The notes under the pieces are model-generated. The model searched no databases, was not told where the DNA came from, and saw only the letters and a program-made list of their open reading frames with translations. The translations under genes and the position numbers were made by a program. 64,000 nt of DNA from contig CAZCYO010000002.1 of the NCBI GenBank assembly GCA_964503265.1, forward strand, positions 130,604 to 194,603, given 5' to 3'. Shown here piece by piece: positions 3,212-60,399 of the stretch (positions within the stretch are counted from its first letter, which is position 1; the number at the start of each line of letters is the position of its first letter). This DNA is from an uncultured Gammaproteobacteria bacterium. Its GTDB lineage: Bacteria; Patescibacteriota; Microgenomatia; Levybacterales; UBA12049.

Positions 3212-4084
3212 CTATTTCCCCCACTGGGTGAAAAGAACTAACATAAAGAAAACAATAACGCATACCCAGGCATACTCCCATAGCACATTTCTAAAAAGTC
3301 GCTTTTCAAGCCATACGTGTGATAATCCTGCGAAGACATAGAAAATCCCTGTTAAAAAAATGGCGATGATAGTAGGACTTGTCGGCCAAAACCACACAGC
3401 AATAGCAATCTCAGCTAAACACGTCGTCATGCCAAGTATCCATAGAGGTGTTGAGTATCCTGTTTTTTGCAGTGAGTATGTCCAGATCGAGTGAAATGAT
3501 AAAAGATAGGTATAGATAGCTACGAGGAGTACTTCATAGAGAACGAAGATGTGGAGTGAAAAAACGATATTAGAAAAGAAGAAATATGACAGTAATGTAA
3601 TTACAAAAGAAACAATTCGTGCACCAGATAATAATTGAATTGTACGAATGGACGAAACAACAAAAATATTTTGACTTAAAAATAACGAATATAATCCAAA
3701 GGCATACAACAGTGTTAGTAATAATCTAAAAATAATCCTTCCTGGAATTAAAAAATAGAACGATCCAAATGCGAGTGAGTAAAAGAATGGAAGAATAAAT
3801 ACAACAAACCCATTCGTCTCATTTAGATCATCTTTAATCGCCCAAAAGAGACAAATATCTGTAAGGATTGATAGAACGAGACCCGTCAGCAGCCCTGATT
3901 TTCCAAACTGAAATTCACTAATAAAAAGGAGAATGGAAAGCAGTGTCACTGAAATAATAAATTTTTGTCTTTTCTCAATCGTAAATTGGATTATTTTTTT
4001 TGTACTTTTCCCTTTCGGTTTTGTTTTTGCGGTAAAACGACCGGGGAAAAGTGATGAGAAAGAAAATCGGTGTAAAAGTTGCAT
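3212..4084 (-). CDS. polytopic integral membrane protein, function unknown
   Basis: 290-aa ORF with many hydrophobic helices; basic N-terminal tail. Confidence 0.45.
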   Translation of the reverse strand: MQLLHRFSFSSLFPGRFTAKTKPKGKSTKKIIQFTIEKRQKFIISVTLLSILLFISEFQFGKSGLLTGLVLSILTDICLFWAIKDDLNETNGFVVFILPFFYSLAFGSFYFLIPGRIIFRLLLTLLYAFGLYSLFLSQNIFVVSSIRTIQLLSGARIVSFVITLLSYFFFSNIVFSLHIFVLYEVLLVAIYTYLLSFHSIWTYSLQKTGYSTPLWILGMTTCLAEIAIAVWFWPTSPTIIAIFLTGIFYVFAGLSHVWLEKRLFRNVLWEYAWVCVIVFFMLVLFTQWGK

Positions 4085-4111
4085 AATGAGGAGTCTAAAT
4101 AGTATACCGCA

Positions 4112-4861
4112 TTAGCTTAGTTGTTTCATTACTTCGTCTGGAATATCAAAGTTAGCATATACTTTTTGTACATCTCCCAGTGATTCAAGCCGCTCAAGGA
4201 GCGAGAGAATTTTTTGTGCTTTTTCAATCTCTTCAATTGAAACAATAATAGTTGGCTTTCGCGTAAATTCCGCACCAGTAATGGTAAGTCCTGCATTCGC
4301 AAGTGTTTCTCGCACAGCATTTAACTCCTCTGGTTTCGTATAAACCGTAACTTCTTCTTCTCCATCTTCCACATCTTCTGCCCCAGCCTCTGCAGCAGTT
4401 AAAAACAACTCGTCCAGTGTCTGACCATTTTTTTGCACAGAAATAAGGCCTTTTTGTTCGAATTGATATGAAACAGCTCCAGGAACTCCGAGACTACCCC
4501 CATTTTTATCAAATGTACTTTTTACCTCGCTTACTGTTCGCTGATTATTGTCAGTTGCGGTTTCGACGATAATACTGACTCCACCAGGGCCAAACCCTTC
4601 ATAAACTGCTTCATCCATATCCCCTGCCATTTTCCCAGATGCACGAGAAATTGCCCGGTCAATATTATCTTTTGGCATATTTGCGGCACGCGCTGCATCA
4701 ACTGCTAAACGGAGCTTGAAGTTAAAACTAGGATCTGCCGATCCACCACTTCTAACTGCAATAGTAATCGCATTTGAAAGCTTCGTGAAAGCTTGCCCTC
4801 TTTTCGAGTCGTTTAATCCTTTTTGTCTTTTAATTGTTGACCACTTAGAATGTCCACTCAT
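4112..4861 (-). CDS. yebC: YebC/PmpR family DNA-binding regulatory protein
   Basis: N-terminus MSGHSKWSTIKRQKG... and full-length similarity pattern typical of YebC/TACO1 family. Confidence 0.85.
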   Translation of the reverse strand: MSGHSKWSTIKRQKGLNDSKRGQAFTKLSNAITIAVRSGGSADPSFNFKLRLAVDAARAANMPKDNIDRAISRASGKMAGDMDEAVYEGFGPGGVSIIVETATDNNQRTVSEVKSTFDKNGGSLGVPGAVSYQFEQKGLISVQKNGQTLDELFLTAAEAGAEDVEDGEEEVTVYTKPEELNAVRETLANAGLTITGAEFTRKPTIIVSIEEIEKAQKILSLLERLESLGDVQKVYANFDIPDEVMKQLS

Positions 4862-22113: not shown

Positions 22114-23217
22114 ATGAATCTTGAAACACGTTTTCGTGCACTTCAAACATTTTTAAACACATCTGAACTTGATGCTGTGTTTATTTCCTCTGTTTCAAAT
22201 ATCGTGTATTTAACTGGTTACGAAGGATTCTCCAAAGAAGAACGAGAAGCGTATCTACTGATTACAAAACGAAAAAAATATATCTTCACAGATGGAAGAT
22301 ATAGTACTGCAGTAAGAGATGAGATAGATGACTTTCAACTCGTTGAATCATCAAGTACGTCACCTTTTTTAAGTAATTTAGAAAAAATCGTGCAAAAAGC
22401 AAAAATAGAGTCAATTGGTATTGAAGTTGATGACCTGAGAGTGAGTGAATATAAAGCTATTTCTCCGCTATTTCCCAAAAAGAAAAGCATTTCTTTAAGT
22501 AAACTCCGAGAAAAAAAAGATGATGAAGAAACAATGCGAATTAAAAAAGCATGTCAGATTGGAGACAAGACCTATGCATATATACTCTCTCGTCTCAAAG
22601 CTGATCAAACTGAAAAACAAGTAGCTGCCGAAATGGAATACGTCATGAAGAGACAAAACGCAGCTCCTTCGTTTCGAACCATTGTCGCCAGTGGGAAAAA
22701 CTCATCAATCCCTCACCATATGACAAGTGAAAAAAAACTCCAAAAGAATGCTTTTCTGCTTTTTGACTTTGGGGTAACCTATGATATGTATTGTTCTGAT
22801 ATGACCAGAACTGTTGTGTTTGGAAAAGCGACAAACGAACATAGAAAAATATACGCTACTGTCTTATTAGCACAACAAAAAGCAATTGATTATATCGAAC
22901 ATTCTCTTAGTACAAATAAGCCATGCTCAGCTCATCAAGCAGATAGTGTCGCTCGATCAACAATAGAGAGCGCTGGATATCCGACAATTCCCCATTCACT
23001 CGGGCACGGAATTGGTGTCGAAGTTCACGAACTCCCTCGTCTTTCTCCACATTCAAAAAGTATCCTAACTGAAGGAATGGTATTCTCAATCGAACCGGGA
23101 ATTTATCTCCCAGACCTAGGCGGTGTACGTATCGAAGATCTGTTTACGATTCAAGGAAATAAACTCATTCAACTTACTAAAGCACCTAAAAAAGAGTTAT
23201 TAGAAATTGAGATTTGA
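22114..23217 (+). CDS. M24-family Xaa-Pro aminopeptidase
   Basis: Metal-ligand motifs ...HSLGHGIGVEVHE... and pita-bread fold pattern; N-terminal creatinase-like domain. Confidence 0.8.
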   Translation: MNLETRFRALQTFLNTSELDAVFISSVSNIVYLTGYEGFSKEEREAYLLITKRKKYIFTDGRYSTAVRDEIDDFQLVESSSTSPFLSNLEKIVQKAKIESIGIEVDDLRVSEYKAISPLFPKKKSISLSKLREKKDDEETMRIKKACQIGDKTYAYILSRLKADQTEKQVAAEMEYVMKRQNAAPSFRTIVASGKNSSIPHHMTSEKKLQKNAFLLFDFGVTYDMYCSDMTRTVVFGKATNEHRKIYATVLLAQQKAIDYIEHSLSTNKPCSAHQADSVARSTIESAGYPTIPHSLGHGIGVEVHELPRLSPHSKSILTEGMVFSIEPGIYLPDLGGVRIEDLFTIQGNKLIQLTKAPKKELLEIEI

Positions 23218-23226
23218 GCTTATAAT

Positions 23227-23255
23227 TTGACAACATAATCATTCTTGGATATAAT
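23227..23255 (+). promoter_or_regulatory. consensus sigma70-type promoter (TTGACA-17 nt-TATAAT) for the his leader
   Basis: TTGACA at 23227-23232 and TATAAT at 23250-23255, with exact 17-nt spacing. Confidence 0.6.
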
Positions 23256-23262
23256 TTGGTTA

Positions 23263-23510
23263 CAATTTAGAAAAAGCGTTACTACTGGAGTCACGATCCA
23301 GGACCCACTTCGCTAATCCCGATATATTCGAGACTAAAGATACGAAGGTGGGACGATGATCTTCAAAATAAGATACGGAAGTTTAACCGTTAAATTGAAC
23401 AGACGATGTCGCGTAAGCGGAGTCGCCACTAAGAGCTTTTTGGAGTAATCCGAAAAGAAAAAGGATGGGACCGCGAGAGGTCCTTTTTTATTACCTCTCG
23501 TTCCTTTTTC
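23263..23510 (+). promoter_or_regulatory. probable T-box riboswitch leader (His-specific) controlling hisG-hisE-hisS
   Basis: T-box-like sequence AAAAAGGAUGGGACCGCG at 23457-23475 against consensus AAUUAGGGUGGNACCGCG. The UGGG bulge is complementary to the CCCA 3' end of tRNA-His. The downstream 8-bp helix is mutually exclusive with it, and a CAC triplet sits in the loop of an upstream hairpin (CUGGA-GUCACGA-UCCAG). Confidence 0.55.
23474..23510 (+). terminator. leader terminator (CGAGAGGU...ACCUCUCG + UUCCUUUUUC)
   Basis: 8-bp perfect helix followed by a U-rich tract; the 5' strand overlaps the 3' half of the T-box sequence. Confidence 0.5.
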
Positions 23511-23551
23511 ATTACAGTATGTGTAGTGGAAAAAGAACGTGAGGTTTTTTT

Positions 23552-24427
23552 ATGGAAAAATTAAATAGTAATAATATAAAAATTGCAGTTCAAAAAGATG
23601 GTCGACTCACTGAGAAAACCTTCAGTTTTTTGCGCAGTGCGGGGCTTGAGTTTGAAACGTATAAGAAAAAACTCTTCGCAGTCTGTCGGAATTTTCCACT
23701 TGAGATTCTCTATGTTCGTGATGATGATATCCCCTATTATGTCGAAACAGGAATCGCTGATTTAGGAATTGTCGGACAAAATTTATTAACAGAACTTGAC
23801 TCGGATGTGACAGAACTTCTTCCACTGGAATTTGGTTACTGTTCACTTGGTGTAGCAGTTCTTAAAGAATCAGATATTACGTCACTTTCAGATTTAGAAG
23901 GATGTAAAATCGCGACATCGTATCCAAATAGTACAAAAAAGTTTTTTGATGACAAAAATATTTCTGTTGAAACAGTGATGATTAGTGGATCTGTCGAGAT
24001 CGCACCGACACTCGGTGTCGCATCAGCGATCGTCGATATCGTCGCAACAGGTAGTACACTCGCACTGAACGATTTAAAACTCTTAACTAAACTCTATGAC
24101 TGCGAAGCGGTACTTATCGCAACAAAAAATATCAAAAGTAAACAAAAGAAAGAACTTATCAACTCACTAGTCACACGCTTTAACGGCGTACTTGCGGCTA
24201 AAAATTATAAATATATTATGATGAATGCTCCCAAAAGTATTTTACCGAAACTTAAAAAATACGTTCCTGGTCTTACTTCCCCTACTATCTCACCACTCGC
24301 AGATAGTAATTTTATTTCGATTCAATCAGTCGTTAAAGAAGATGTGTTCTGGGAAACAATGGAAACACTTAAAAAACTTGGCGCAAGTGGTATCATCGTA
24401 TTACCAATTGAAAAAATGATTATATAA
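23552..24427 (+). CDS. hisG: ATP phosphoribosyltransferase (long form)
   Basis: 291 aa; catalytic-domain motifs and a C-terminal regulatory domain. Confidence 0.85.
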   Translation: MEKLNSNNIKIAVQKDGRLTEKTFSFLRSAGLEFETYKKKLFAVCRNFPLEILYVRDDDIPYYVETGIADLGIVGQNLLTELDSDVTELLPLEFGYCSLGVAVLKESDITSLSDLEGCKIATSYPNSTKKFFDDKNISVETVMISGSVEIAPTLGVASAIVDIVATGSTLALNDLKLLTKLYDCEAVLIATKNIKSKQKKELINSLVTRFNGVLAAKNYKYIMMNAPKSILPKLKKYVPGLTSPTISPLADSNFISIQSVVKEDVFWETMETLKKLGASGIIVLPIEKMII

Positions 24428-24432
24428 ATACT

Positions 24433-24714
24433 ATGACACTTGAAAATCTCTATCAACTCATCGTTACACGGAAAGAAGAAATGCCTGAAAATTCCTACCT
24501 TACTTCCCTTTTTACAGAGGGCGACGATAGAATTATTCAAAAAGTTGGCGAGGAAGCAGTTGAGGTAGTAATCGCTGCAAAAGGAACTGATAAAGAACGA
24601 GTTATTTCTGAAATGGCTGATTTATGGTTTCACTCCCTCGTTCTTCTTGCTAACAAGGGTATTACGCCAGAAGATATTTTAGTAGAACTTGAAAAGCGAG
24701 ATAAAAAGAAATAA
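24433..24714 (+). CDS. hisE: phosphoribosyl-ATP pyrophosphatase
   Basis: 93 aa; ...EEAVEVVIAAKGTDKERVISEMADLWFHSLVLL... HisE/MazG-like motif. Confidence 0.8.
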   Translation: MTLENLYQLIVTRKEEMPENSYLTSLFTEGDDRIIQKVGEEAVEVVIAAKGTDKERVISEMADLWFHSLVLLANKGITPEDILVELEKRDKKK

Positions 24715-24736
24715 TTTCTGATATTATACAAATACT

Positions 24737-26005
24737 ATGATTACACAAACACTTAAAGGGTTTCGAGATTTTCTGCCGAAAGAAGCACTTAAACGCAAGT
24801 TCGTTATCGATACGATAACCTCAGTGTTCCAAAAATTTGGCTTTGACCCACTTGAAACACCAGCACTTGAATATGGTGAGGTCTTAACTGGAAAATATGG
24901 TGAAGAAGCAGATAAACTATTATATATGTTTACTGATCGTGGCGGACGAAACATAGGACTTCGATACGACCAAACAGTTCCACTCGCTCGTGTCGTCGCT
25001 GAATACCAAGATATTCCAAAACCATTTAAGAGATATCAGATACAACCTGTTTGGCGTGCTGAGAACACCCAAAAAGGACGATATCGTGAATTCCTCCAGT
25101 GTGATGCAGATATTATCGGCGATTCATATTCCCCGACGGCTGATGCTGAAATTTTATCTCTTCTTTATAGCGTTTATAACGCACTTGGTTTTAAAAAAAT
25201 TACCATTGTCGTAAATAGTCGACAAATACTACGTAAACTTATTAATGACTCACTTATGACTCCCCCATCTGAGGAGATATTCCTCTCTATCGTCCGCTCA
25301 ATTGATAAACTTGATAAAATTGCAGAAGAAGGTGTAAAAGCTGAATTACTCACCAAAGAAATTCCTGAAGCTGCAATAAACGAATTATTTACTAAGATTT
25401 CAAAGTGGTCTTCACTCACCTATAAAGAACTTGAATCAGTGGATAGTAATTTATACTCAAGTTTAAAAATGGCAATTGAGAATTTTCAAATTCCAGAAAC
25501 TGCGTTACTATTTAATCCTACGCTCGCTCGTGGACTAGATTACTACACAGGTATCATTTTTGAAGCTGTTGATGCTTCATATCCTGGATCTCTTGGTGGC
25601 GGAGGCAGATATGATAAGTTAATTGGAACATTTATTGGAAAAGATGTAACAGCTGTGGGATTTGCGATCGGTTTTGATCGCACTCTAGAAGTAGCGGAAA
25701 TGAATAACCTTATTTCGACTAACACTTCTGTCACAAAAGTACTGATCGCATATGAAGATGATACTGATACTATTTTTCCTCAAGCACTAAATCTAACTTC
25801 TACACTACGCGAGGAAAATATCAATACAGAAATGTACTTAAATCCTAAAGATAAACTCGATAAACAACTGAAATATGCTGATAAAAAAGGGATTCCCTAT
25901 GTAGTAATCGTCGAAAGCGAAAAGCTTACGCTCAAAGATATGACTACGGGAGAAAGAAAAGAAGTTAGTCTTGAAGCTGTGGTTAATACACTGAGACAAA
26001 CATAA
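24737..26005 (+). CDS. hisS: histidine--tRNA ligase
   Basis: Class II motif 2 (FKRYQIQPVWRAENTQKGRYREFLQCDADIIG), HisRS-specific GGGRYD motif, and C-terminal anticodon-binding domain. Confidence 0.9.
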   Translation: MITQTLKGFRDFLPKEALKRKFVIDTITSVFQKFGFDPLETPALEYGEVLTGKYGEEADKLLYMFTDRGGRNIGLRYDQTVPLARVVAEYQDIPKPFKRYQIQPVWRAENTQKGRYREFLQCDADIIGDSYSPTADAEILSLLYSVYNALGFKKITIVVNSRQILRKLINDSLMTPPSEEIFLSIVRSIDKLDKIAEEGVKAELLTKEIPEAAINELFTKISKWSSLTYKELESVDSNLYSSLKMAIENFQIPETALLFNPTLARGLDYYTGIIFEAVDASYPGSLGGGGRYDKLIGTFIGKDVTAVGFAIGFDRTLEVAEMNNLISTNTSVTKVLIAYEDDTDTIFPQALNLTSTLREENINTEMYLNPKDKLDKQLKYADKKGIPYVVIVESEKLTLKDMTTGERKEVSLEAVVNTLRQT

Positions 26006-26098
26006 CTTGTCATTCTGGAGAAGCAACGACTTCGATAGAATCCCAAACCATATGAGATCCTATCGCTTCGCTCCAGGACGACAGAATGAACTCCTGCC

Positions 26099-27019
26099 AT
26101 GTCTAATACTAAAAAAGCAATTATTGCACTCATTATCGCCAATACTATTTGGGGTGCGGCGTCCCCAGTCTTTAAATGGTCACTTGAGAATATTCATCCT
26201 TTCACCTTAGCTTTTTTACGCTTTGCAGGCTCTGCTGTACTATTATTTCCGCTATCGATCGGACACTTGAAAATGACTCGTCGGGATTTCATTAAGCTCT
26301 CGACGATGTCTTTAATAGGACTCTCACTTTCAATTCCAATCTTTTTTCTAGGCCTCCAACTCACTTCAAGCATTAACGCTCCTGTTATATCCTCATCTGG
26401 TCCAGTAATTCTTCTTATTGGAGCGATGATATTTTTAAAAGAACGGCCTAAGAAAAAAGTTATCATGGGAACGCTCATTAGTTTGGCTGGCGTGCTACTT
26501 ATTATCCTGCAACCAATCCTTAAAGAAGGGCTTGATGGCGGACTTACAGGCAATTTACTATTCGTTGCATCCACTATCGGAGGTGTCATTTATACCCTAC
26601 TTTTAAAAGAGTTGTTAAAAAAATATGAGGTAATACCTGTTCTTTTCTGGACGTTTACGATTGCTGCCATAACTACGATGCCATTTTTTTTAAACGAAGT
26701 ACATACGTATGGCTTCCTCCCACAATTAAATATACAAGGAATTGTAGGAATTTATTTTGGTGTGTTTTTCGCAGCAACTCTCGCATATCTTCTTTTCACA
26801 TACTCACTGAAGATCCTTGTCGCGAATGAGGTTGGCCTGTTCACCTATATTGACCCAGTCATAGCGGTGATTATCGCCATCCCGCTTCTCGGAGAAAAAG
26901 TAAACAGTATTTTTCTACTCGGGTCAGTCTTAGTATTTGGAGGTATTTTTATCTCAGAGAATCGTCTTCACTGGCACCCATTTTATTTACTCAGAAGAAC
27001 TTTCTCTAAAGAAAACTGA
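26099..27019 (+). CDS. EamA/DMT-superfamily transporter
   Basis: 10 TM helices as two EamA repeats. Confidence 0.75.
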   Translation: MSNTKKAIIALIIANTIWGAASPVFKWSLENIHPFTLAFLRFAGSAVLLFPLSIGHLKMTRRDFIKLSTMSLIGLSLSIPIFFLGLQLTSSINAPVISSSGPVILLIGAMIFLKERPKKKVIMGTLISLAGVLLIILQPILKEGLDGGLTGNLLFVASTIGGVIYTLLLKELLKKYEVIPVLFWTFTIAAITTMPFFLNEVHTYGFLPQLNIQGIVGIYFGVFFAATLAYLLFTYSLKILVANEVGLFTYIDPVIAVIIAIPLLGEKVNSIFLLGSVLVFGGIFISENRLHWHPFYLLRRTFSKEN

Positions 27020-27666: not shown

Positions 27667-27966
27667 ATGAAAGTCGGAATTCACCCACATTATAATTCAG
27701 CAGCACAAGTAACTTGTGTTTGTGGTAACAAGTTCACTGTAGGTTCAACTCAAGATGTTATTCACGTTGAGCTTTGTAGTAAATGTCATCCATTCTATAC
27801 AGGCGAACAGCGATTCGTTGACACAGCATCACGTATTCAGAAATTCCAAAAGAAACAAGAAGTTGCAGCACAATTCAAAGTTACGATTAAAGCGAAAGTT
27901 GACGAAAAGAAACGAGCAGAAGACGCACCTAAATCTCTTCGAGAGATGCTTATGGGCACGAAATAG
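27667..27966 (+). CDS. rpmE: 50S ribosomal protein L31
   Basis: MKVGIHPHY...CxC...[10 protein letters not shown] zinc-ribbon L31 pattern. Confidence 0.85.
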
Positions 27967-28129
27967 TTATCCCCTTCTCTTTGTGTTAACAATAACTCCA
28001 TTTATGCACACACATCTTTTAGTTTTCAACGAAGTATCAAGTATAATGTATTACGTATCATGTATATAATACATGCTTTAAATTTTGCTTTATACTTAAT
28101 ACATACTACTTGATACCTAATACAAAATC

Positions 28130-29035
28130 ATGAATGACTATCGCTACACACAAATCGCTGAACTTGAGGCTAAAATTGAGGAAACTCGAGCACTTCTTGA
28201 AGATCCGACTCTTACAGAACTTGCTGAAGCTGAAATTGCGGAGCTTGAAGCTCAGAAGAAAGCTATCGAAGATACGATGATTCCTGATCCAGCCGAAGAA
28301 GCAGCTGATCTGGACAATCGAAATATTATTCTTGAAGTAAAAGGTGCAGCAGGTGGAGATGAAGCGACATTATTCGCACAGGAACTACTTCGCATGTATG
28401 TACGATACTGTGAACTTAATGGCTTCAAATTTGAACAGGTTGACGATCTCGTTATCAAAATCGCTGGAAAAGAACCATTTAAAACATTTAAATATGAATC
28501 TGGAGTTCACCGTGTTCAGAGAGTTCCTAAAACTGAGAAAAAAGGACGAGTTCACACTTCCACAGCCACAGTGTCAGTTCTTCCAGAACTTGAAGATATT
28601 GATTTACATATCAGCCCAGATGATATCGAATTTGCAGCGTTTCGTTCAGGCGGACATGGCGGACAGAACGTAAATAAAGTATCGACCGCCGTTCGAATCG
28701 TTCACAAACCATCAGGAATTGCTGTGGTATCTTCATCTGAACGATCTCAAATCCAAAATCGCGAAATCGCTATGGCGCTACTTCGTGCGAAGTTATGGGA
28801 AATTAAAGTGACTGAGCAAAACGAAGAAATCGCATCACTCAGATCCACACAAGTTGGACGAGGAAATCGCTCTGAAAAAATTAAAACATATAACTTCCCC
28901 CAGGACCGCCTCACTGATCACAGACTTGGCAAATCATGGGGAAATCTCCCAGTCATTATGGACGGATATATTCCAGAAGCTGATTACTCACAACTTGAAG
29001 AAGGTGCACCGTTAGTAGACTCTGAAGAAGAGTAA
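28130..29035 (+). CDS. prfA: peptide chain release factor 1 (tripeptide motif PKT)
   Basis: GGQ motif (RSGGHGGQNVNK). The RVQRVPKTEKKGRVHTS region matches the RF1 pattern with PKT; no SPF (RF2) motif. Confidence 0.85.
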   Translation: MNDYRYTQIAELEAKIEETRALLEDPTLTELAEAEIAELEAQKKAIEDTMIPDPAEEAADLDNRNIILEVKGAAGGDEATLFAQELLRMYVRYCELNGFKFEQVDDLVIKIAGKEPFKTFKYESGVHRVQRVPKTEKKGRVHTSTATVSVLPELEDIDLHISPDDIEFAAFRSGGHGGQNVNKVSTAVRIVHKPSGIAVVSSSERSQIQNREIAMALLRAKLWEIKVTEQNEEIASLRSTQVGRGNRSEKIKTYNFPQDRLTDHRLGKSWGNLPVIMDGYIPEADYSQLEEGAPLVDSEEE

Positions 29036-48104: not shown

Positions 48105-49856
48105 ATGTGGCAACAACTCGCAAATCCATTACATAACATCACACTCTCAGCAGTAGTTGCAGTCATCCCGATACTCTTTCTCTTTATTCTCCTCATTAGC
48201 CGCAAAGTTCCTGGCTACATCGCCACGATATGTACACTCATCGTGGCGCTTATCATCGCAACCACAATCTATACTATGCCTGTTAGCCTGGCACTGATGG
48301 CTGCGCTTTATGGGATACTCAACGGCTTATTCCCAATAGGTTGGATCGTCCTTAATGCTGTATTTCTCTATAACATCAGTGTTAAAAGTGGCGGGTTTGC
48401 CATCGTTCGAGATAGTATCGAATCTGTGACTGCGGATCGACGTCTTCAGGCGTTGTTAATCGCGTTTTGTTTTGGAGCATTTCTTGAGGGTTCGGCAGGA
48501 TTTGGGGCACCCGTCGCGATCACTGCTGGAATGCTGGTGGGACTTGGATTTGTACCATTATATGCTGCTGGAATTTGTCTAATCGCCAATACCGCACCTG
48601 TCGCGTTCGGAGGTGTCGGAATCGCAGTGATTACGGCCGGACATTTGACAAATATCGATCCAGCTATCCTCAGTCGTATGATCGGTCATCAGCTTCCGTT
48701 TATCGCATTTATCATCCCCTTTTGGCTTGTCATTATCATCGCAGGGTGGAAAGATACGAAAGCTATCTGGCCTGCAATTCTCGTCACCAGTACATCATAT
48801 GCACTAACGATGTTTCTCACAGCGAGTTACCTCGGACCGACACTTCCTGATGTTCTTTCCGCTATCGTCTCAATCATTTGTTTGATTGGTTTTCTCAGAA
48901 TTTGGCACCCCAAAGAAATCTGGCGTTTTCCGAAAGAACGATCCGAAGCACTTATGCATCCTGTGAGACATATGCATAGTCGAACAGAACTCGTTAGGGC
49001 GTGGACTCCATTTCTGTTACTTATTATTTTTATCGGTAATTGGGGAAGTTCAGGCATCCAGCAGATACTCAGTAAGGTAACACTTCATATTCCTTTTGGA
49101 GTTCTTAACCATGCGGTTGTCGCAAATGGGAACATACTCACTGTTAACTATTCCTTTGCATGGCTTGGAGCAGCAGGGACAGCGATTCTGTTAGCGACAA
49201 TCGTAACCGCACTTCTTCTCAGACTTCCCGCTCGTATATTCTGGCAAGTAGCTAGCCAAACCGTCACAGAACTCTACAAACCCCTCATCACAATTGGCTC
49301 GATCGTTGGATTCGCATATGTCGCTAATTATTCTGGCATGTCCACTACGATCGGAAACGCACTTACCATAACAGGACACTTTTTCCCGTTACTTTCTCCC
49401 CTTCTCGGCTGGCTTGGTGTATTCATCACTGGCAGTGATACCTCTTCAAACGCGCTTTTTAGTAATATTCAGTCCCAAACAGCCCAGTCACTCGGAATTA
49501 GTCCGGTCCTAAGTGTCGCAGCGAATAGTAGCGGTGGGGTCGCAGCGAAAATGATCTCTCCCCAAAGCATCGCAGTAGCCACTGCGTCGACCAAACTAAG
49601 CGGACAAGAAGGAACATTATTTAGATTTACGATCCTTCACAGTCTCGGCCTGATTGGAATCATTTGTATCCTCACCTATATCCAGGCTTACTACGCGACA
49701 TGGATGATCCCAAGTATCGTAAGTACAAATATCACAAACGCAGCATCAAGTGTATCAATCGGAGAGATATGCATTATCGGTGTTTCACTATCAGTACTAG
49801 TAGCATTTGCGGTGGGGTCATTTCGATATACGGAAGATACACATCCTGCGGAGTGA
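48105..49856 (+). CDS. lctP: L-lactate permease (LctP family)
   Basis: 583 aa; conserved N-terminal and central LctP regions (...GAFLEGSAGFGAPVAITAGMLVGLGF...). Confidence 0.8.
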   Translation: MWQQLANPLHNITLSAVVAVIPILFLFILLISRKVPGYIATICTLIVALIIATTIYTMPVSLALMAALYGILNGLFPIGWIVLNAVFLYNISVKSGGFAIVRDSIESVTADRRLQALLIAFCFGAFLEGSAGFGAPVAITAGMLVGLGFVPLYAAGICLIANTAPVAFGGVGIAVITAGHLTNIDPAILSRMIGHQLPFIAFIIPFWLVIIIAGWKDTKAIWPAILVTSTSYALTMFLTASYLGPTLPDVLSAIVSIICLIGFLRIWHPKEIWRFPKERSEALMHPVRHMHSRTELVRAWTPFLLLIIFIGNWGSSGIQQILSKVTLHIPFGVLNHAVVANGNILTVNYSFAWLGAAGTAILLATIVTALLLRLPARIFWQVASQTVTELYKPLITIGSIVGFAYVANYSGMSTTIGNALTITGHFFPLLSPLLGWLGVFITGSDTSSNALFSNIQSQTAQSLGISPVLSVAANSSGGVAAKMISPQSIAVATASTKLSGQEGTLFRFTILHSLGLIGIICILTYIQAYYATWMIPSIVSTNITNAASSVSIGEICIIGVSLSVLVAFAVGSFRYTEDTHPAE

Positions 49857-51187: not shown

Positions 51188-53062
51188 TTATTCCTCTGAC
51201 TGCTGCACATCAGAATCTGAAGAAGAAGTATCAGAACCATCACTACTTGAATCCATCATGCGTTCATCTCCTGTGTTGTTCGTGTCATCCTGTATTTGTG
51301 TATCTTCCGTTGATTCTTCAGGAGTCGGAGTTGCTTCTTCCTCAAAGTAAAGACTGACATCACCACTGTTCTCTAAATACTCTGGATCCTCATCAGGTCG
51401 AGACTGTAAATTTCCGATTTCATTTTCGACACGATAACTTTCCGCTTCAGCTTCACGAATCATGCCTTCGGCTTCACTGTGTTTAGAATCACAATCGTCT
51501 CCACCCATTTCCAGACACATCGCGTATACCGCCTCATTTAATTCAGATGTTTGTGAGATCATTTCATCGAATTTCTTTTTTAGAGATTCCTGATCGAGCT
51601 CTTCAAAACCGAATGCTTTGAGTAATTCGACTCCGAGAGTAGACATAGCAGCGTTATAGAGAATTTCTTCGTTATCTATCGTCGGTTCAACATCATATGG
51701 GTCATCTATTGGTTCATCATATTTTTCAGTAGAAGTCTTGAGGGTATTTTGAAGCGACTCATAGGTCGGTCCCGATTCAACTCCAAGGGCTTCTAGGCGC
51801 TGTAGCTGCTTGGCAGCATCAACTGCGGTTGAGTTCGGATCCTGTGCTACTTTTGATGCATCTTTGACAGCTACTTCTTTCGCTTTTTCAGTAAGCTGCT
51901 CATCAAGATTTGTATCATCATCAAGCCCAATGAGTTGAACATTTTGCAAAGCAATCATAATAGTTTTAACATCAGAGTTTGGATTCGAAAGTATTTTTTT
52001 CGTATCGTCAGCGATGATGTTTTTTGCTTTACGAAGACAATTCTCACCAATCGAATCATATCCCATTAACTGTGCAGCCTGTGCAAGCCCTAAGTATTCC
52101 TCAACCCCAAGTCCTTCTCTTCGACACGTTGCCTCATAAAATCCCTGACCTGTTTCGTAAGCATATGCTTGTTTAATAAATGAGAATCGAGGATTCTTTA
52201 TTTTTTTCTGCAGAACAAGTGCTGCATAGAGTTCAAGCGCAGGTGGTTGTTTTTTAGATAGAATTTTTGTAACAGCGTTCTTCGCCTTCGTCAGCTCATC
52301 TGGCGAAAGTGATTTATTATTAAATAAGAGACTCGTTGCTGCTTCAATCACAGTAAGTGATGGCATAGATGTTACAGCTAAAGCTTCAGTTGCGATTTGG
52401 GTTTGATTATCACCGTCTAATGAAAACACATACGCTCCACCTGTTAGGATTCGAGCCGGAAGATACGTTTCTGTCTCAAGTCCACGTGCAATCAGAGCTG
52501 GTGTATACGATGTCGCTTTTGCATCAATTTCTAGCACTTGTGCTGTTCCAGTAGACCGAAGTGTCATAGACTTAATATTTTTAGGGGCGTGGTTTCTAAA
52601 TGAACTATCTGTAAGATTAAATGATAACGTTACAGGACGCGAAAAACGTAGTTTTCCTGGACTAAGTAGTACACCTGCAGTAGGTGATGTCGCTTTTTTA
52701 TCATAATAAAACGGAATCATTTTAACGAGGGTTTTTTCATTTAGCGCACCTTTGGGAACTTCAAGTGTGACACGAACGTTCTCCCTGGTTACAATCTGCA
52801 TAACAGTATCACGCGACGGATCGATCGTTAGTTGACGTGCTCTGGCAAAATCAAGATCAGGCTTTATAACAGTGAGTGGTTTCTGAGTCCCGATAAATGG
52901 TAATGCTTTCCAAGGCTTAAAAAAGAATGCTAATCCGATTATGAGACCAAGCACAATAATTCCGAAAAGATATGTAAAACGCGAAAATCCCCGCTCAGAT
53001 GTGACGACTTGTTTTTGTCTTCTTTTATGAACTTTGGCAGATTTTTTTTGAGGCATAGTCAA
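51188..53062 (-). CDS. large hypothetical membrane-anchored protein with acidic Ser/Asp-rich C-terminal tail
   Basis: Basic N-terminal tail, one TM helix, ~550-aa ectodomain, ending ...DSSSDGSDTSSSDSDVQQSEE. Confidence 0.4.
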   Translation of the reverse strand: MTMPQKKSAKVHKRRQKQVVTSERGFSRFTYLFGIIVLGLIIGLAFFFKPWKALPFIGTQKPLTVIKPDLDFARARQLTIDPSRDTVMQIVTRENVRVTLEVPKGALNEKTLVKMIPFYYDKKATSPTAGVLLSPGKLRFSRPVTLSFNLTDSSFRNHAPKNIKSMTLRSTGTAQVLEIDAKATSYTPALIARGLETETYLPARILTGGAYVFSLDGDNQTQIATEALAVTSMPSLTVIEAATSLLFNNKSLSPDELTKAKNAVTKILSKKQPPALELYAALVLQKKIKNPRFSFIKQAYAYETGQGFYEATCRREGLGVEEYLGLAQAAQLMGYDSIGENCLRKAKNIIADDTKKILSNPNSDVKTIMIALQNVQLIGLDDDTNLDEQLTEKAKEVAVKDASKVAQDPNSTAVDAAKQLQRLEALGVESGPTYESLQNTLKTSTEKYDEPIDDPYDVEPTIDNEEILYNAAMSTLGVELLKAFGFEELDQESLKKKFDEMISQTSELNEAVYAMCLEMGGDDCDSKHSEAEGMIREAEAESYRVENEIGNLQSRPDEDPEYLENSGDVSLYFEEEATPTPEESTEDTQIQDDTNNTGDERMMDSSSDGSDTSSSDSDVQQSEE

Positions 53063-54060: not shown

Positions 54061-55713
54061 ATGGATCAAGCACTTCTCGACGAACTGAAAACAAACATTA
54101 AAGGCGATGTCGTCACTGATGAAGAAACCCTTATGCTCCATAGTCACGATGCAAGTCTATTTGAAGTAAAACCCCAAGTCGTCGTATTTCCAAAAGACGA
54201 AGAAGATGTCGCTTCCCTCGTCAAATTCGTGTCCGAACATAAAAAAGATAGCGCTACTCTCTCACTCACTGGTAGATCTGCTGGAACAGATATGAGTGGC
54301 GGATCAATTAATGAATCAATCATCGTCGCTTTTCAAAAATACTTTACAAAAATCGGCGAACTCCGTGGTGATGTCGCGACCGTCCAACCTGGTGTCTTCT
54401 ATCGTGACTTTGAAAAAGAAACACTAAAAAGTAATATGATTTTCGCATCGTACCCTGCTTCACGTGAACTCTGCGGCATTGGTGGAATCGTTAATAACAA
54501 TTCAGGTGGTGAAAAATCTCTTGAGTACGGTAAAACAGAAAATTTCGTAAAAAGGGTGAAAGTAGTACTGGCTGATGGGAGTATTTGTGAACTTAAACCA
54601 TTAAACGAGGAAGAATTAAAAAAGAAAATGGAACTGGATACATTTGAAGGGAAACTATATAAGAATATGTATACGCTTATTACGGATAACTATGATGTTA
54701 TTAAAGCAGCCAAACCTCAAGTGACGAAAAATTCTGCTGGATACTTCCTCTGGAATGTGTACGATAAAGAAAAAGGGATCTTTGATCTAACCAAACTCTG
54801 GGTTGGCGCTCAAGGAACGCTTGGCATGTTACTCGAGGCAGATTTGCAGGTAGTTCCAGTTCGTAAACATCACGAAATGGAAGTAATTTTTCTCCACGAT
54901 TTAACCCATTTAGGTGAAATTATTGACGCGGTTCTTCCTCTTGGCCCTGAAAGTTTTGAGAGTTATGATGACAACACACTTAAACTCGCTCTTCGCTATT
55001 TCCCAGAATTTATTAAACAGCTTGGAATTTCGGGCATGATACAGGCAGGACTCGCATTTATGCCAGCATTTATGCAGATGGCGATCGGGAGACTGCCGAA
55101 ACTTATTTTACAAGTCGACTTCGCTGGAGATGATCTAGAAGAACTCAAGAAAAAGATCGAAACCCTCCGCGAAAAACTAAAACCACTTCATCCTCAGACA
55201 CGAATCGCGATTGATGATCAGGAGAAGAAATATTGGTTGGTGCGTCGTGAGAGCTTTAATCTTCTTCGCCATAAAATTCGAGATAAACACACTGCACCAT
55301 TTATTGATGACTTTGTCATTGATCCACACCAAATTGCTGAAGTTATCCCACAAGTAACAGCAGTCCTCAAACGATATCCTGATTTTATTTTTACTGTTGC
55401 AGGACACGTCGGAAATGGAAATTTCCATATTATTCCACTGGTCGATATCACTAAACCAGCAGTGAGAGATGCAATTCCAGTAATTTCTAAAGATGTCTAT
55501 GATATTATCGCGAAGTATAAAGGCTCAATTACTGGTGAGCATAATGATGGACTCGTTCGCTCCCCATTCTTAAAACAAATGTATGGTGAAAAGATTTATT
55601 CACTCTTTGAGGAAACGAAAAAGATCTGGGATCCAGAAAATATTTTTAATCCAGGGAAGAAAGTGAACAGTTCATTTGATTACGCGATGAAACATGTGCG
55701 AACAAACTGGTAA
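54061..55713 (+). CDS. FAD-binding (PCMH-type) oxidoreductase, D-lactate dehydrogenase/GlcD-like
   Basis: FAD-binding domain pattern (...LTGRSAGTDMSGGSINESIIV...) and C-terminal FAD-oxidase domain. Confidence 0.7.
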   Translation: MDQALLDELKTNIKGDVVTDEETLMLHSHDASLFEVKPQVVVFPKDEEDVASLVKFVSEHKKDSATLSLTGRSAGTDMSGGSINESIIVAFQKYFTKIGELRGDVATVQPGVFYRDFEKETLKSNMIFASYPASRELCGIGGIVNNNSGGEKSLEYGKTENFVKRVKVVLADGSICELKPLNEEELKKKMELDTFEGKLYKNMYTLITDNYDVIKAAKPQVTKNSAGYFLWNVYDKEKGIFDLTKLWVGAQGTLGMLLEADLQVVPVRKHHEMEVIFLHDLTHLGEIIDAVLPLGPESFESYDDNTLKLALRYFPEFIKQLGISGMIQAGLAFMPAFMQMAIGRLPKLILQVDFAGDDLEELKKKIETLREKLKPLHPQTRIAIDDQEKKYWLVRRESFNLLRHKIRDKHTAPFIDDFVIDPHQIAEVIPQVTAVLKRYPDFIFTVAGHVGNGNFHIIPLVDITKPAVRDAIPVISKDVYDIIAKYKGSITGEHNDGLVRSPFLKQMYGEKIYSLFEETKKIWDPENIFNPGKKVNSSFDYAMKHVRTNW

Positions 55714-55722
55714 ATAATACTG

Positions 55723-56586
55723 CTATGGGAGGAGACCCGTTAGCAAAAGTAAAATTGAAAAAACGGTGAGACTTTTGAGTGATACAAAAAATGTTTTTTT
55801 CGCCCACTTTTCTGAATCGTTTGTAAAAAAACCTTCTGAACAAATCCACAACCAATATCCATTCATCAGTAGCATAACAATAAAATAAACATATCCTGTT
55901 AGGCCAATAATTGTTAGAAGTAATGTCGTTATAACATAGCCAATCAAATAGATAAATATATGTGTTTTGGTGAGTGCTAGTCCTTTTTTAATTGGAAAAG
56001 TTGGGATTGCTGCGGCTGCATAATCCTTCATTCGATAGATTGCGATCGCATAAAAGTGAGGCATTTGCCAAAATGAAAGAATAAGAAAGAGCACTAATGC
56101 ACCGATATCAAAGCTATTCGTAACTGCTGTGTATCCAGCGACAATCGGCATCGCGCCTGAAACACCACCAATAAGCGTACCATGCACTGAGCGACGTTTG
56201 GAAAAGCCATATAATAATACATAATCAATAAACCCAATGACACCCACAGCGAGTGTTAAAACATTTGTATACGTTATCAGAAGAACAACACCAAAAATCC
56301 CAAGTACTGTGGCAAAAATAAATGCATTTCGTCCACTCACTATACCTGTCACCAATGCGCGCTTCTTGGTCCTCTCCATCTTTGCATCAATCTCACGATC
56401 CATGTAATTATTACAAACACATGCAGCTGCAATAATACACGCAGTACCCAGCATTACAGCAAAAAAAAGGAGTACATCAATGTGCGTTTTTGAAGCGACG
56501 AAGAATCCGGCAGCAGTGGTAAGCAAATTTCCGTAGATTATTCCAGGTTTTGTTAATTGATAATACGTTTTTATGCGGTCAGACAC
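55723..56586 (-). CDS. cyoE: protoheme IX farnesyltransferase (heme O synthase)
   Basis: UbiA-family motifs; terminal gene of the cyo operon. Confidence 0.85.
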   Translation of the reverse strand: MSDRIKTYYQLTKPGIIYGNLLTTAAGFFVASKTHIDVLLFFAVMLGTACIIAAACVCNNYMDREIDAKMERTKKRALVTGIVSGRNAFIFATVLGIFGVVLLITYTNVLTLAVGVIGFIDYVLLYGFSKRRSVHGTLIGGVSGAMPIVAGYTAVTNSFDIGALVLFLILSFWQMPHFYAIAIYRMKDYAAAAIPTFPIKKGLALTKTHIFIYLIGYVITTLLLTIIGLTGYVYFIVMLLMNGYWLWICSEGFFTNDSEKWAKKTFFVSLKSLTVFSILLLLTGLLP

Positions 56587-56963
56587 TAGTGATGAATCCC
56601 TTCGTCGTTAATGATGTGTCTCTCCATGCCAGCTGAGGTCATATTATAATTTAAATGAGTCATTATCCAAATCGATCCAATTACAACGATCAAGATCATG
56701 CCTGTAATATAAAAAAGAAACAGTGCATTAAAATACGGTTTTTCCTCACGACCAAAATGCAAGAAGAAGACGAGTTGTACGACAAGTTGGATCAGTGCCA
56801 ACACGATTAGATATGGAATAAGCAGTTCATGAGGAAAAGACATATGACTGGTATTTGTATGGATAAATACCGGAATAAATGCAGCAAAAGTTAAGACAAG
56901 TGATAAAATAAATCCAATGATATATGATCGTATTACTCCAATTTTCATAGCTTTATAAGGCAC
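56586..56963 (-). CDS. cyoD: cytochrome o ubiquinol oxidase subunit IV
   Basis: ~110-aa three-TM protein, placed between cyoC and cyoE. Confidence 0.6.
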   Translation of the reverse strand: MPYKAMKIGVIRSYIIGFILSLVLTFAAFIPVFIHTNTSHMSFPHELLIPYLIVLALIQLVVQLVFFLHFGREEKPYFNALFLFYITGMILIVVIGSIWIMTHLNYNMTSAGMERHIINDEGIHH

Positions 56964-57549
56964 CTAATAAATAAACAACTGTAAAAATAAATATCCAAAC
57001 AATATCAAGAAAATGCCAGAATAAACTGAGTAGCGTTAGTTTTCTGATAGCACTTTCTGTTACACCTTTGCGCCAAATATAAATAAGCAAAATAAGAATC
57101 CATACTAACCCAGACAAAATATGTACACCATGAGTTCCTACTAACGTAAAAAATGCTGAGAGAAATGCACTTTTCTGTGGAGTATTCCCTTCGTGAATAA
57201 GCGTTGAAAATTCAGAAAGCTCGAGTCCTAAAAATACGACACCGAGTATAAATGTACTTATGAAATAGAGTAACGTTTTTTTCTTGTCTTTCAATCGCAC
57301 ATAGAGCATACCTATTCCACAGGTGAAACTACTCGTTAATAAAATAAGCGTTTCTGTAAGTGCGAGTGGCAGACTAAATAACTTCTCACTTCCCTCTCCT
57401 CCAAATGTATTATTATGGAGTACTGCGTACGCTGCAAAAAATACGGCAAACATTAAAAGATCAGTCAAAATATAGAGCCAAAAACCAAAATATGATTTAT
57501 CATCTGTAGCAGATTCCATACTAATATCGTCTTTTCTACGTTCGATCAT
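56953..57549 (-). CDS. cyoC: cytochrome o ubiquinol oxidase subunit III
   Basis: Five-TM subunit III pattern (...YFGFWLYILTDLLMFAVFFAAY...). Confidence 0.8.
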   Translation of the reverse strand: MIERRKDDISMESATDDKSYFGFWLYILTDLLMFAVFFAAYAVLHNNTFGGEGSEKLFSLPLALTETLILLTSSFTCGIGMLYVRLKDKKKTLLYFISTFILGVVFLGLELSEFSTLIHEGNTPQKSAFLSAFFTLVGTHGVHILSGLVWILILLIYIWRKGVTESAIRKLTLLSLFWHFLDIVWIFIFTVVYLLGAL

Positions 57550-59525: not shown

Positions 59526-59526
59526 A

Positions 59527-60399
59527 TTACATATTCATATCTGAAGAATGCATATATTTCGTGACAATATCATTATACAGATTCTGACTCACAGGTGCAT
59601 AAAAAGCAGCTTTATTTTTCTCACTTGGTTTGGCTAATATGTCATATGTTTCGTGATCAAGCGTAAATGAAGATTGCTTCACTTTTTCAACCCAGCGAGC
59701 AAATTCTTCATCAGACAGGGAGTGAGCAGTAAATTTCATATCAGCAAATCCTATCCCGCTAATTTCGGCTGTCGATCCGGCAAATTCGCCTGTTTTATCT
59801 GCCATAAGATGTAACTTCGTTACCATCCCTGACATCGCGTACATTTGTCCACCCAGACGAGGAATCCAAAATGAGTTCATCGGCGCATCGGCCGTCAATT
59901 CAAATGTGACTGGTGTTTTTTCTGGAAATGCGACAACATTTACTGTCGCGATATGTTGTTCAGGGTAAATAAATAACCATTTCCATTGCAAGGCAACGAC
60001 TTGGATACGAATTGGTGTTACGGCTGAGGAAAGTGGTTTATATGGATCAAGCGCATGAGTGCTTTGCCAAGTAATGATGGCCAAGATAAAAATAATCATA
60101 CTTGGCAGTACCCACCATAATAAAAGCATGGAGCGACTCCCTACATGATCTGGTTTATAGACTGCTTTCGTGTTTGATTCTCTATATCTCCATACTATAA
60201 TGAATGTCGTCACGATAACTGTTCCAATAACAGTTATACCAAGTGCAAATACGAGTACGAGCAGTGCATATTCTTTTTGGGCGACGATACCAGCAGGATT
60301 GAGGAGTGGAAAACTAAACGTGTGAGCGGTAATCCAAGCTAACGCACAAAGATCAATAATAACTAAGGAAATAATAAGTGGCAGTGCTAGTTTCCTCAT
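59527..60399 (-). CDS. cyoA: ubiquinol oxidase subunit II (no CuA-site Cys/His cluster)
   Basis: Two N-terminal TM helices plus cupredoxin-like domain lacking the CxExCG CuA motif, consistent with quinol oxidase. Confidence 0.75.
   Translation of the reverse strand: MRKLALPLIISLVIIDLCALAWITAHTFSFPLLNPAGIVAQKEYALLVLVFALGITVIGTVIVTTFIIVWRYRESNTKAVYKPDHVGSRSMLLLWWVLPSMIIFILAIITWQSTHALDPYKPLSSAVTPIRIQVVALQWKWLFIYPEQHIATVNVVAFPEKTPVTFELTADAPMNSFWIPRLGGQMYAMSGMVTKLHLMADKTGEFAGSTAEISGIGFADMKFTAHSLSDEEFARWVEKVKQSSFTLDHETYDILAKPSEKNKAAFYAPVSQNLYNDIVTKYMHSSDMNM

Follow-up and report, generated by a model that had tools for sequence, protein, structure and literature searches.

A predicted histidine-specific T-box riboswitch of minimal architecture ahead of hisG-hisE-hisS in an uncultured bacterium

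What controls a gene set that joins the first two enzymes of histidine synthesis to the histidyl-tRNA synthetase, and why are those two enzymes found without the rest of their pathway beside them? The question is raised by a 64,000-nucleotide (nt) stretch of contig CAZCYO010000002.1 (positions 130,604 to 194,603; hereafter the window, with all positions counted from its first letter), in which a promoter and a long untranslated leader precede hisG-hisE-hisS. An earlier note made from the letters of this DNA had proposed T-box control of the three genes from behind a consensus promoter, and comparison with relatives backs that proposal. T-boxes are the textbook case of RNA reading RNA, as well as an antibiotic target. 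We conclude that the leader (23227-23551) is very probably a His-specific T-box riboswitch of minimal architecture that switches hisG-hisE-hisS, a call on which the canonical discriminator domain, the covariation seen across a family of relatives and an 80.8-bit match to a covariance model (CM) built from those relatives, R1, all agree.

The discriminator domain follows the known T-box pattern closely. Positions 23458-23475 carry the T-box sequence AAAAAGGAUGGGACCGCG, and every rule checked finds its counterpart in the leader, from helix A1 and the 7-nt bulge to the G.U wobble at the A2 base (G23473.U23501) and the purines around Stem III, in keeping with the published description of an RRRxG-Stem III-AA purine string and a basal G.U in A2 (PMC7583486). 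A permissive local scan with the Rfam T-box model (RF00230), whose gathering score is 93 bits, aligned 23313-23508 at 39.9 bits (E 1.6e-7), with a good fit over the 3' two-thirds (Stem IIA/F-box, Stem III, T-box sequence and antiterminator), high posterior probability over IIA/B (23375-23392) and 65 Stem I positions deleted; the same model gives 34-48 bits on the relatives or leaves them unreported.

Those relatives come from a search of metagenome contigs for the His-type core, GGATGGGACCGCG followed after 10-40 nt by CGTTCCT, which returned at least 120 loci (cited here by L numbers), many of them from groundwater 0.1-um fractions. The genes found past the T-box in these loci by tblastn are hisG, hisG-hisD, hisG-hisE, hisS or an M15 dipeptidase, and in other cases a tRNA-His gene comes next; the regulon includes his genes, hisS and tRNA-His, and many of the HisG proteins are 61-65% identical to that of the window. 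We aligned the window with 48 distinct relatives, picked by loop motif and distance to the core and not by stem pairing. Covariation over the whole structure reached 0.42 as against 0.135 for shuffled alignments (0 of 500 as high) and 0.05-0.12 for slid controls; it is carried by more than 40 relatives and is also seen in the IIB pseudoknot, Stem IIA and the base helix of Stem I. R1 was trained on the 5' domain of 40 relatives, and it constitutes an independent test of membership because its training left out both the window and the core that served as search pattern. Across the 64 kb it gives one strong match (23268-23434, 80.8 bits, E 6e-18), mid-range within the 39-128 bits at which R1 matches 76 of the first 100 loci. 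By these comparisons the element belongs to a large T-box family in uncultured genomes of the Patescibacteria/Candidate Phyla Radiation (CPR). No T-box was found at the closest HisG loci of the genome collections (L001, L002, L019, L024), nor at L034/L035.

Two by-products of this search were set aside. A second R1 match, at 51380-51488(-) with 18.4 bits and a rough E of 0.008, is probably due to chance, lying as it does inside a 624-aa orphan open reading frame (ORF) without a T-box core. A strict motif count (perfect 5-bp stem, 7-nt CAC/CAU loop) retrieved 45 of 114 loci, 41 of them with GUCACGA, and underestimates the size of the family, most of the missed loci having slightly altered loop closures such as AGUCACGUC.

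Comparison with the relatives also settles on a Stem I, which single-sequence folding leaves undecidable because the 5' half of the leader has a z of about 0. In the resulting model Stem I is made up of a 3-bp base helix, an asymmetric K-turn-like junction and a 5-bp stem that presents CAC in its apical loop. The family's base helix, AGC/GCU, is paired in 88% of cases and covaries (AU to UA or GC, GC to CG), and the alignment shows the GA motifs of a K-turn in 28 of 49 leaders on the 3' side and in 14 of 49 on the 5' side. The 7-nt loop GUCACGA (23290-96), which holds the CAC specifier at 23292-23294, is invariant in all 49 aligned leaders, and the stem beneath it shows compensatory changes at each of its five pairs; this stem occurs in 15 or more sequence versions, and 96% of its cells are paired. 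The CAC triplet that had earlier been noticed in an upstream hairpin loop is thereby borne out, and a manual assignment of Stem I and its specifier, listed in the earlier note as a check, arrives at the 5-bp stem with the CAC loop. Nothing in the leaders corresponds to the long canonical Stem I, whose side-loop (S-turn) holds the specifier and whose distal end forms a platform of interdigitated T-loops: a distal region is absent from their alignment, and the Rfam CM deletes 65 Stem I positions in the window.

A specifier elsewhere, either GAU (Asp) in AGACUAAAGAUA or the CAC of 23306-08 in a larger Stem I, is scarcely credible: the Rfam CM does place 'GAUA' at the codon-plus-purine position, and the minimum free energy fold pairs CCCACUUCG with CGAAGGUGGG, yet 23304-23352 is an insertion which 46 of the 48 aligned relatives lack, the Stem I drawn by the CM is aligned there with low posterior probability and without GA motifs, the UGGG bulge mismatches G73 of tRNA-Asp, and it is the GUCACGA hairpin that is invariant and has the covarying stem. 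The Rfam version of Stem I, which uses the inserted hairpin and puts 'GAU-A' at codon plus purine, was likewise discarded on comparison with relatives, and it clashes with the UGGG bulge.

With CAC at 23292-23294 retained as specifier, the insertion behind it can be seen as an optional module and not as damage, because similar insertions occupy the same site in other loci. L070 and L104 are the aligned relatives that carry one, and shorter homologous insertions stand at this site in L070 (7279-7512) and L027-29 (L027 2223-2629); once the 49 nt are subtracted, the window's Stem I loop lies about 130 nt ahead of the core, the mode of the family. The loop of the recurrent hairpin is of the form CUA..UA, its 3' strand contains a bulge of purines, in L133 (2317-2400) it is placed 5' of Stem I, and in the window its enlarged loop looks like the product of an internal duplication.

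The identity of the ligand is indicated by the genes next to the T-box. At least 15 relatives have a tRNA-His gene on the T-box strand right behind the terminator, often joined to its U-tract, with hisG or hisS coming next (L039 3735-3809; L059 4528-4600(-); L093 1880-1952; L133 2687-2761; L154 4269-4341; also L072, L080, L105, L114, L125, L135, L137, L149, L045 and L089). These adjacent genes encode G-1, a GUG anticodon and the discriminator C73, and GUG complements the CAC specifier just as the CCCA-3' end, with C73, complements the UGGG bulge; the tRNA-His specificity earlier deduced from UGGG and C73 is in agreement with both features of the relatives' tRNAs. In such relatives, though not in the window, the riboswitch would govern the expression of the tRNA that it senses.

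How would such a leader switch? The strand 23493-23505, comprising the 3' strands of A2 and A1, can pair either with 23462-81, forming the antiterminator (-21 to -22.5 kcal/mol, z -4.05), or with 23523-45, and the two pairings are mutually exclusive. Because the terminator hairpin is the more stable (-27.4 kcal/mol), it is expected to win unless tRNA stabilizes the antiterminator. The terminator had earlier been placed in an 8-bp helix, CGAGAGGU/ACCUCUCG, an assignment that does not hold: that helix is A2 of the antiterminator, and the real terminator is the longer hairpin at 23493-23545 with its U7. The hisG ATG follows directly after U7, and the hisG Shine-Dalgarno (SD) sequence, GAGG at 23541-44, lies inside the 3' strand of the terminator 7 nt before it, an arrangement in which the OFF state would also block translation of any read-through transcript.

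In the mechanism that we propose, the nascent leader would fold into the 5-bp Stem I showing CAC, Stem II, the IIA/B pseudoknot, the extra hairpin and Stem III, and tRNA-His would dock its GUG anticodon on CAC. Uncharged tRNA-His would then pair its CCCA end with UGGG, stack on A1 and stabilize the antiterminator (23462-23505), whereupon RNA polymerase would enter hisG-hisE-hisS, and probably the EamA gene behind them, with the hisG ribosome-binding site left free. With charged or absent tRNA, the A2/A1 3' strands would instead pair with 23523-23545, and hairpin and U7 would terminate transcription with GAGG buried. Both tRNA binding and termination as the main mode of control are what we infer from these elements. 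A further switch point may sit within the antiterminator itself, where bulge nucleotides can form a mini-hairpin followed by a U-run; mini-hairpin and U4-8 are kept in 40 of 49 aligned leaders and are lengthened in a subgroup by extra complementary bases, and they may act as an early terminator, or as a pause site, whenever the bulge is not filled by the 3' end of the tRNA. We know of no comparable conserved U-run within the antiterminator of canonical T-boxes.

The leader could alternatively be a purely translational T-box of the kind found ahead of actinobacterial ileS, with 23493-23545 serving as an SD sequestrator and the U-run incidental. GAGG does lie within the hairpin, 7 nt ahead of the ATG; ultrashort Stem I elements have so far been tied to translational control (PMC7583486); and about 11 of the 48 family members have no U-run and are possibly translational, L109 among them resembling an SD sequestrator. 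We nevertheless regard this alternative as unlikely, since a 22-bp hairpin running directly into U7 is a textbook intrinsic terminator, since 37 of 48 relatives combine a hairpin that reuses the A2/A1 3' strands (-19 to -54 kcal/mol) with T5-7, and since tRNA-His is the first downstream gene in at least 15 relatives and as such is beyond translational control. Control in these last relatives, where the U-tract runs straight into the tRNA gene, can only be transcriptional.

Several observations weigh against the reading of the window leader as a terminator-controlled His T-box. At the Rfam gathering threshold RF00230 reports no T-box in the window, where a tRNA-Leu is the sole Rfam match; the Rfam test that had been suggested earlier thus fails at the curated threshold (39.9 vs 93 bits) and aligns a false Stem I showing a 'GAU' codon, and we ascribe the shortfall to the model's limits for this subclass and not to the absence of a T-box. 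The weight of the UGGG/C73 match is debated, G-1 and C73 being paired in tRNA-His, and TBDB omits discriminator matching for His T-boxes (PMC7778990); moreover, UGGG was fixed by our search pattern, which makes its invariance in the family uninformative. Within Stem I, the window's base helix pairs at three of four positions and has a G.A mismatch, its K-turn-like junction shows UA instead of GA on the 5' side with the 3' GA present, and the 49-nt insertion could impair folding. The covariation is that of the wider family and not of the window's own lineage, as the leader of L156 is identical to the window's (L156 and L157 are the same strain) and L026, whose HisG is 94% identical, keeps 26 nt of the leader. 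Finally, with the SD sequence in the terminator stem, transcriptional and translational control are inseparable by sequence alone.

Some of the same imperfections might be taken as signs of a decaying relic, in which the 49-nt insertion and the weak K-turn have inactivated the T-box and left constitutive termination or read-through. The imperfect base helix and junction, the loss of hisD to hisI from the operon and the state of hisG in L026, which is frameshifted and truncated, would all suit such decay. All positions invariant in the family are intact, however, and R1 scores the window mid-range; the homologous insertions in L070 and L027-29 head intact his operons; the promoter is perfect, and hisS, a classic T-box target, depends on it; and between the window and L026 the ratio of nonsynonymous to synonymous substitution (dN/dS) in hisG is 0.07 at a dS of 0.43. 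The window hisG is under purifying selection and not a wreck, and we hold a relic to be very improbable. In the L026 copy itself (1-1065) a T6 run near codon 27 carries one extra T, and similarity ends after codon 241, where an unrelated reverse-strand ORF begins; decay into a pseudogene, a rearrangement and an assembly artefact are all possible causes. The positions of the parts of the predicted riboswitch, and of the genes that it would control, are collected in Table 1.

Table 1. Parts of the predicted riboswitch and genes of the operon, with positions in the window.
Feature	Positions	Strand	Support or remark
Sigma-70 promoter, TTGACA-17-TATAAT	23227..23255	+	consensus match 12/12
Stem I base helix, 5' strand AGCG	23275..23278	+	pairs with CGAU 23354-23357 across Stem I and the inserted hairpin
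Ultrashort Stem I, CUGGA / loop GUCACGA / UCCAG	23285..23301	+	invariant loop, covarying stem
Inserted hairpin, CCCACUUCG ... CGAAG(G)UGGG, enlarged loop CUAA..CUAAAGAUA	23304..23352	+	49 nt, optional module
Stem II, AUCUU/AAGAU, loop CAAAAU	23359..23374	+	5 bp, 5/5 pairs compensatory; loop AAA invariant
Stem IIA ACGG/CCGU, F-box CCGUUA, IIB pseudoknot GUUU 23381-84 / GAAC 23397-400	23375..23400	+	Rfam CM alignment
Extra hairpin past IIA/B, CGAU-G-UCGC GUAA GCGG-A-GUCG	23404..23425	+	insertion relative to Rfam consensus
Stem III, 23436-43 / 23450-57, flanks AAGAG ... AAAAA	23431..23462	+	fits RRRxG-Stem III-AA rule
Antiterminator: A1 AGGA/UCCU 23462-65/23502-05, bulge UGGGACC 23466-72, A2 GCGAGAGGU/ACCUCUCGU 23473-81/23493-501	23462..23505	+	CM alignment, fold
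Mini-hairpin, bulge GGACC with GGUCC at top of A2, then U6	23467..23490	+	terminator scan
Intrinsic terminator, 22-bp hairpin 23493-23517 / 23523-23545, then U7 23545-23551	23493..23551	+	-27.4 kcal/mol, z -6.9
hisG, long-form ATP phosphoribosyltransferase	23552..24427	+	Pfam HisG 5.5e-50, HisG_C 4.5e-27
hisE, phosphoribosyl-ATP pyrophosphohydrolase, without HisI domain	24433..24714	+	Pfam PRA-PH 1.2e-22
hisS, histidyl-tRNA synthetase	24737..26005	+	Pfam tRNA-synt_His 2.8e-50 and HGTP anticodon-binding domain
EamA-family transporter gene, probably last of the operon	26099..27019	+	Pfam EamA 6e-39

Between Stem I and Stem III, the extra hairpin past IIA/B has a family-conserved UGU/GAG internal motif with five of its seven pairs covarying, and the pairs of IIA and IIB likewise covary in the family. 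The promoter upstream, as described earlier, matches the consensus in all twelve positions and is the sole perfect sigma-70 site within 22900-26300; transcription is inferred to start about 7 nt past it, near 23262-23264, and relatives have TTGACA/TATAAT-like hexamers at an equal spacing to a conserved AAAGCG.

The operon behind the leader has the gene content reported for it before, long-form hisG, hisE and hisS, as judged by Pfam domains, with gaps of 5 nt (hisG-hisE) and 22 nt (hisE-hisS). The EamA gene follows hisS after 93 nt, a gap in which a promoter or terminator was looked for and not found, and L044, L086 and L112 likewise have hisS-EamA after a T-box of this type; EamA is probably the last, co-transcribed gene of the operon, by way of which tRNA-His may control a transporter related to histidine. 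Of the ten-step histidine pathway (hisG/Z, E, I, A, H, F, B, C, N, D) the window holds hisG and hisE: a Pfam scan of 57 ORFs of at least 93 aa spanning the 64 kb detected no other his gene, and six-frame tblastn of the window with a relative's HisG/D/C/HAD(N)/B/H/A/F/I/E set returned hisG and hisE alone, in line with what had been stated earlier.

The two-gene set also has a published counterpart, a hisE-hisG operon in Corynebacterium glutamicum and Mycobacterium whose remaining his genes are elsewhere (PMC3896937). Corynebacterium and the window have in common a long-form HisG and a stand-alone HisE encoded together and away from hisD...hisI; they differ in that the Corynebacterium order is reversed, the transcript is leaderless and without a T-box, and hisS is unlinked. 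The unusual operon of the earlier note therefore stands as a gene set and is less odd than it had seemed, given this precedent and given that one deletion suffices to produce it. L034 (HisG 67% identical) shares the window's flanks, namely DnaB, ORFs of 170 and 265 aa with a glucodextranase-B-like one between them, and an M24 peptidase, past which come genes for an AI-2E transporter and a TrpR-family protein and then hisG-D-C-B-H-A-F. L133, whose T-box is of the window's type, continues with tRNA-His and hisG-D-C-HAD-B-H-A-F-I-E, T-box-hisG-hisD... recurs in L109, L126 and L027-29, and other relatives have T-box-hisG-hisE or T-box-hisG-M15. The same reduced his set is linked to hisS, without a T-box, in L001 and L002, and L001 has its gene order in common with the window. 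Because L034 joins the flanks to a full operon, L133 preserves the order and no remnants are left in the window, the window operon is best read as an ancestral T-box-hisG...hisI-hisE after a single internal deletion of hisD to hisI. The remaining his genes may lie elsewhere in the genome, or the first steps of the pathway may be all that is kept, the two alternatives named in the earlier note.

The relatives also point to the kind of genome from which the window comes. Sources label HisG relatives of 63-68% identity as Patescibacteria, Daviesbacteria and Saccharimonadales, and a collection of 5.8 billion protein clusters yielded one closer relative, L026, at 94%. The window's gene content, with its many orphan ORFs, 23S-IVS protein and LytR_C, fits a reduced CPR-type genome. 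A TrpR-family protein, HisR, serves his operons as an alternative regulator, and replacement between HisR and T-boxes has been described in Firmicutes (PMC9413887); HisR represses as a protein in response to free histidine, whereas the T-box is an RNA that senses tRNA charging. No HisR/TrpR-family gene was found in the window by tblastn. L034 (4615-4941), L035 (75-401) and L002 (4400-4741(-)) have such a gene directly upstream of hisG and no T-box, and the two regulators appear, from this distribution, to replace each other at one locus within Patescibacteria as well.

His T-boxes on his operons, hisS and transporter genes are known from Firmicutes (PMC9413887), and the window leader has much in common with these canonical elements (the his operon and hisXYZ of Lactococcus/Lactobacillales, hisS of Bacillus): a CAC/CAU specifier, pairing of the tRNA 3' end with the bulge, Stem III purines, A1/A2, the G.U sensor, the IIA/B pseudoknot, a competing intrinsic terminator, and his biosynthesis, hisS and transport as targets. 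Unlike them, it has neither a specifier side-bulge nor the distal double-T-loop platform for the tRNA elbow, its Stem II is 5 bp long without an S-turn, it adds a hairpin past IIA/B and the mini-hairpin with its U-run, and its host is a CPR bacterium. A closer likeness in the 5' domain is offered by the ultrashort-Stem-I translational T-boxes of actinobacterial ileS, in Mycobacterium tuberculosis and Nocardia farcinica (Sherwood 2015, as summarized in PMC7583486), the class II of TBDB, whose model has been applied to Actinobacteria and to truncated class I hits only (PMC7778990). Shared with this class are an apical-loop specifier on a short Stem I, possibly a K-turn-like junction, the lack of an elbow platform, reliance on the Stem II/IIA-B region and an SD sequence inside the OFF hairpin. 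The actinobacterial elements, however, are Ile-specific and sequester the SD without a terminator, whereas the window's is His-specific and ends in U7, and some of its relatives control a tRNA gene; according to the same summary, the ileS T-boxes also have an elongated Stem II with an S-turn and a five-purine string that clamp the codon-anticodon helix. The window Stem II contains no AGUA/GAA S-turn and is instead a 5-bp hairpin with a CAAAAU loop.

By this comparison the element is known in kind, as a His T-box, and new in structure, in that its ultrashort Stem I goes together with an intrinsic terminator, a Stem II of minimal size and added hairpins. We would tentatively go further, to a proposal that we hold to be possible though not probable: that these leaders form a structural class of T-box which has not been described before, is common across CPR, takes the terminator decision co-transcriptionally without an elbow platform, makes up for it with new parts and in many cases controls a tRNA-His gene. 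The compensating parts would be the hairpin past IIA/B, the hairpin that some leaders insert between the first two stems, and the mini-hairpin and U-run as an early stop or pause. As a further and less likely layer, HisG and HisE, retained under tRNA-His control without hisD to hisI, may have a starvation role besides histidine synthesis. No paper joining T-boxes with Patescibacteria or CPR was found in open-access text.

By the current rule, a transcriptional T-box depends on a long Stem I for fast capture of tRNA, and ultrashort ones belong to slow, reversible, translational switches. An ultrashort Stem I joined to an intrinsic terminator, sometimes before a tRNA gene, offers a natural test of that kinetic argument. 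Annotation at Rfam thresholds overlooks the whole class, with the consequence that riboswitch regulation in CPR is under-counted. Furthermore, the locus suggests that a bacterium with a reduced genome still tracks the charging of tRNA-His to set the supply of its histidyl-tRNA synthetase, a probable transporter and the first two enzymes of the histidine pathway.

Another target of the same T-box type is seen at about 20 loci, where it stands ahead of a homolog of the M15 (VanX-like) D-Ala-D-Ala dipeptidase. In L043, for example, the T-box lies at 4625-4666(-) and the M15 gene at 3868-4575(-), and further cases are L036, L046, L050, L057, L060-62, L066, L075, L088, L110, L118, L121, L124, L127 and L136. 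Some of these T-boxes are second copies, convergent with T-box-hisG-hisE, and elsewhere the order is T-box-hisG-M15, an association which suggests that a peptidase may belong to the histidine-starvation regulon.

Elsewhere in the window, an RF-2 ORF with PCRF and RF-1 domains has no N-terminus and is overlapped by an upstream ORF (27755-28069, 28130-29035), a pair suggestive of the programmed +1 frameshift that is usual in prfB; L31 is encoded just upstream (27667-27966). A cluster resembling a haem-copper quinol oxidase (COX2 with COX_ARM, COX1, COX3 and a UbiA/CyoE-like gene; 55723-60399(-)), an L-lactate permease (48105-49856) and an FAD-linked oxidase (54061-55713) are genes of aerobic metabolism within an otherwise CPR-looking genome.

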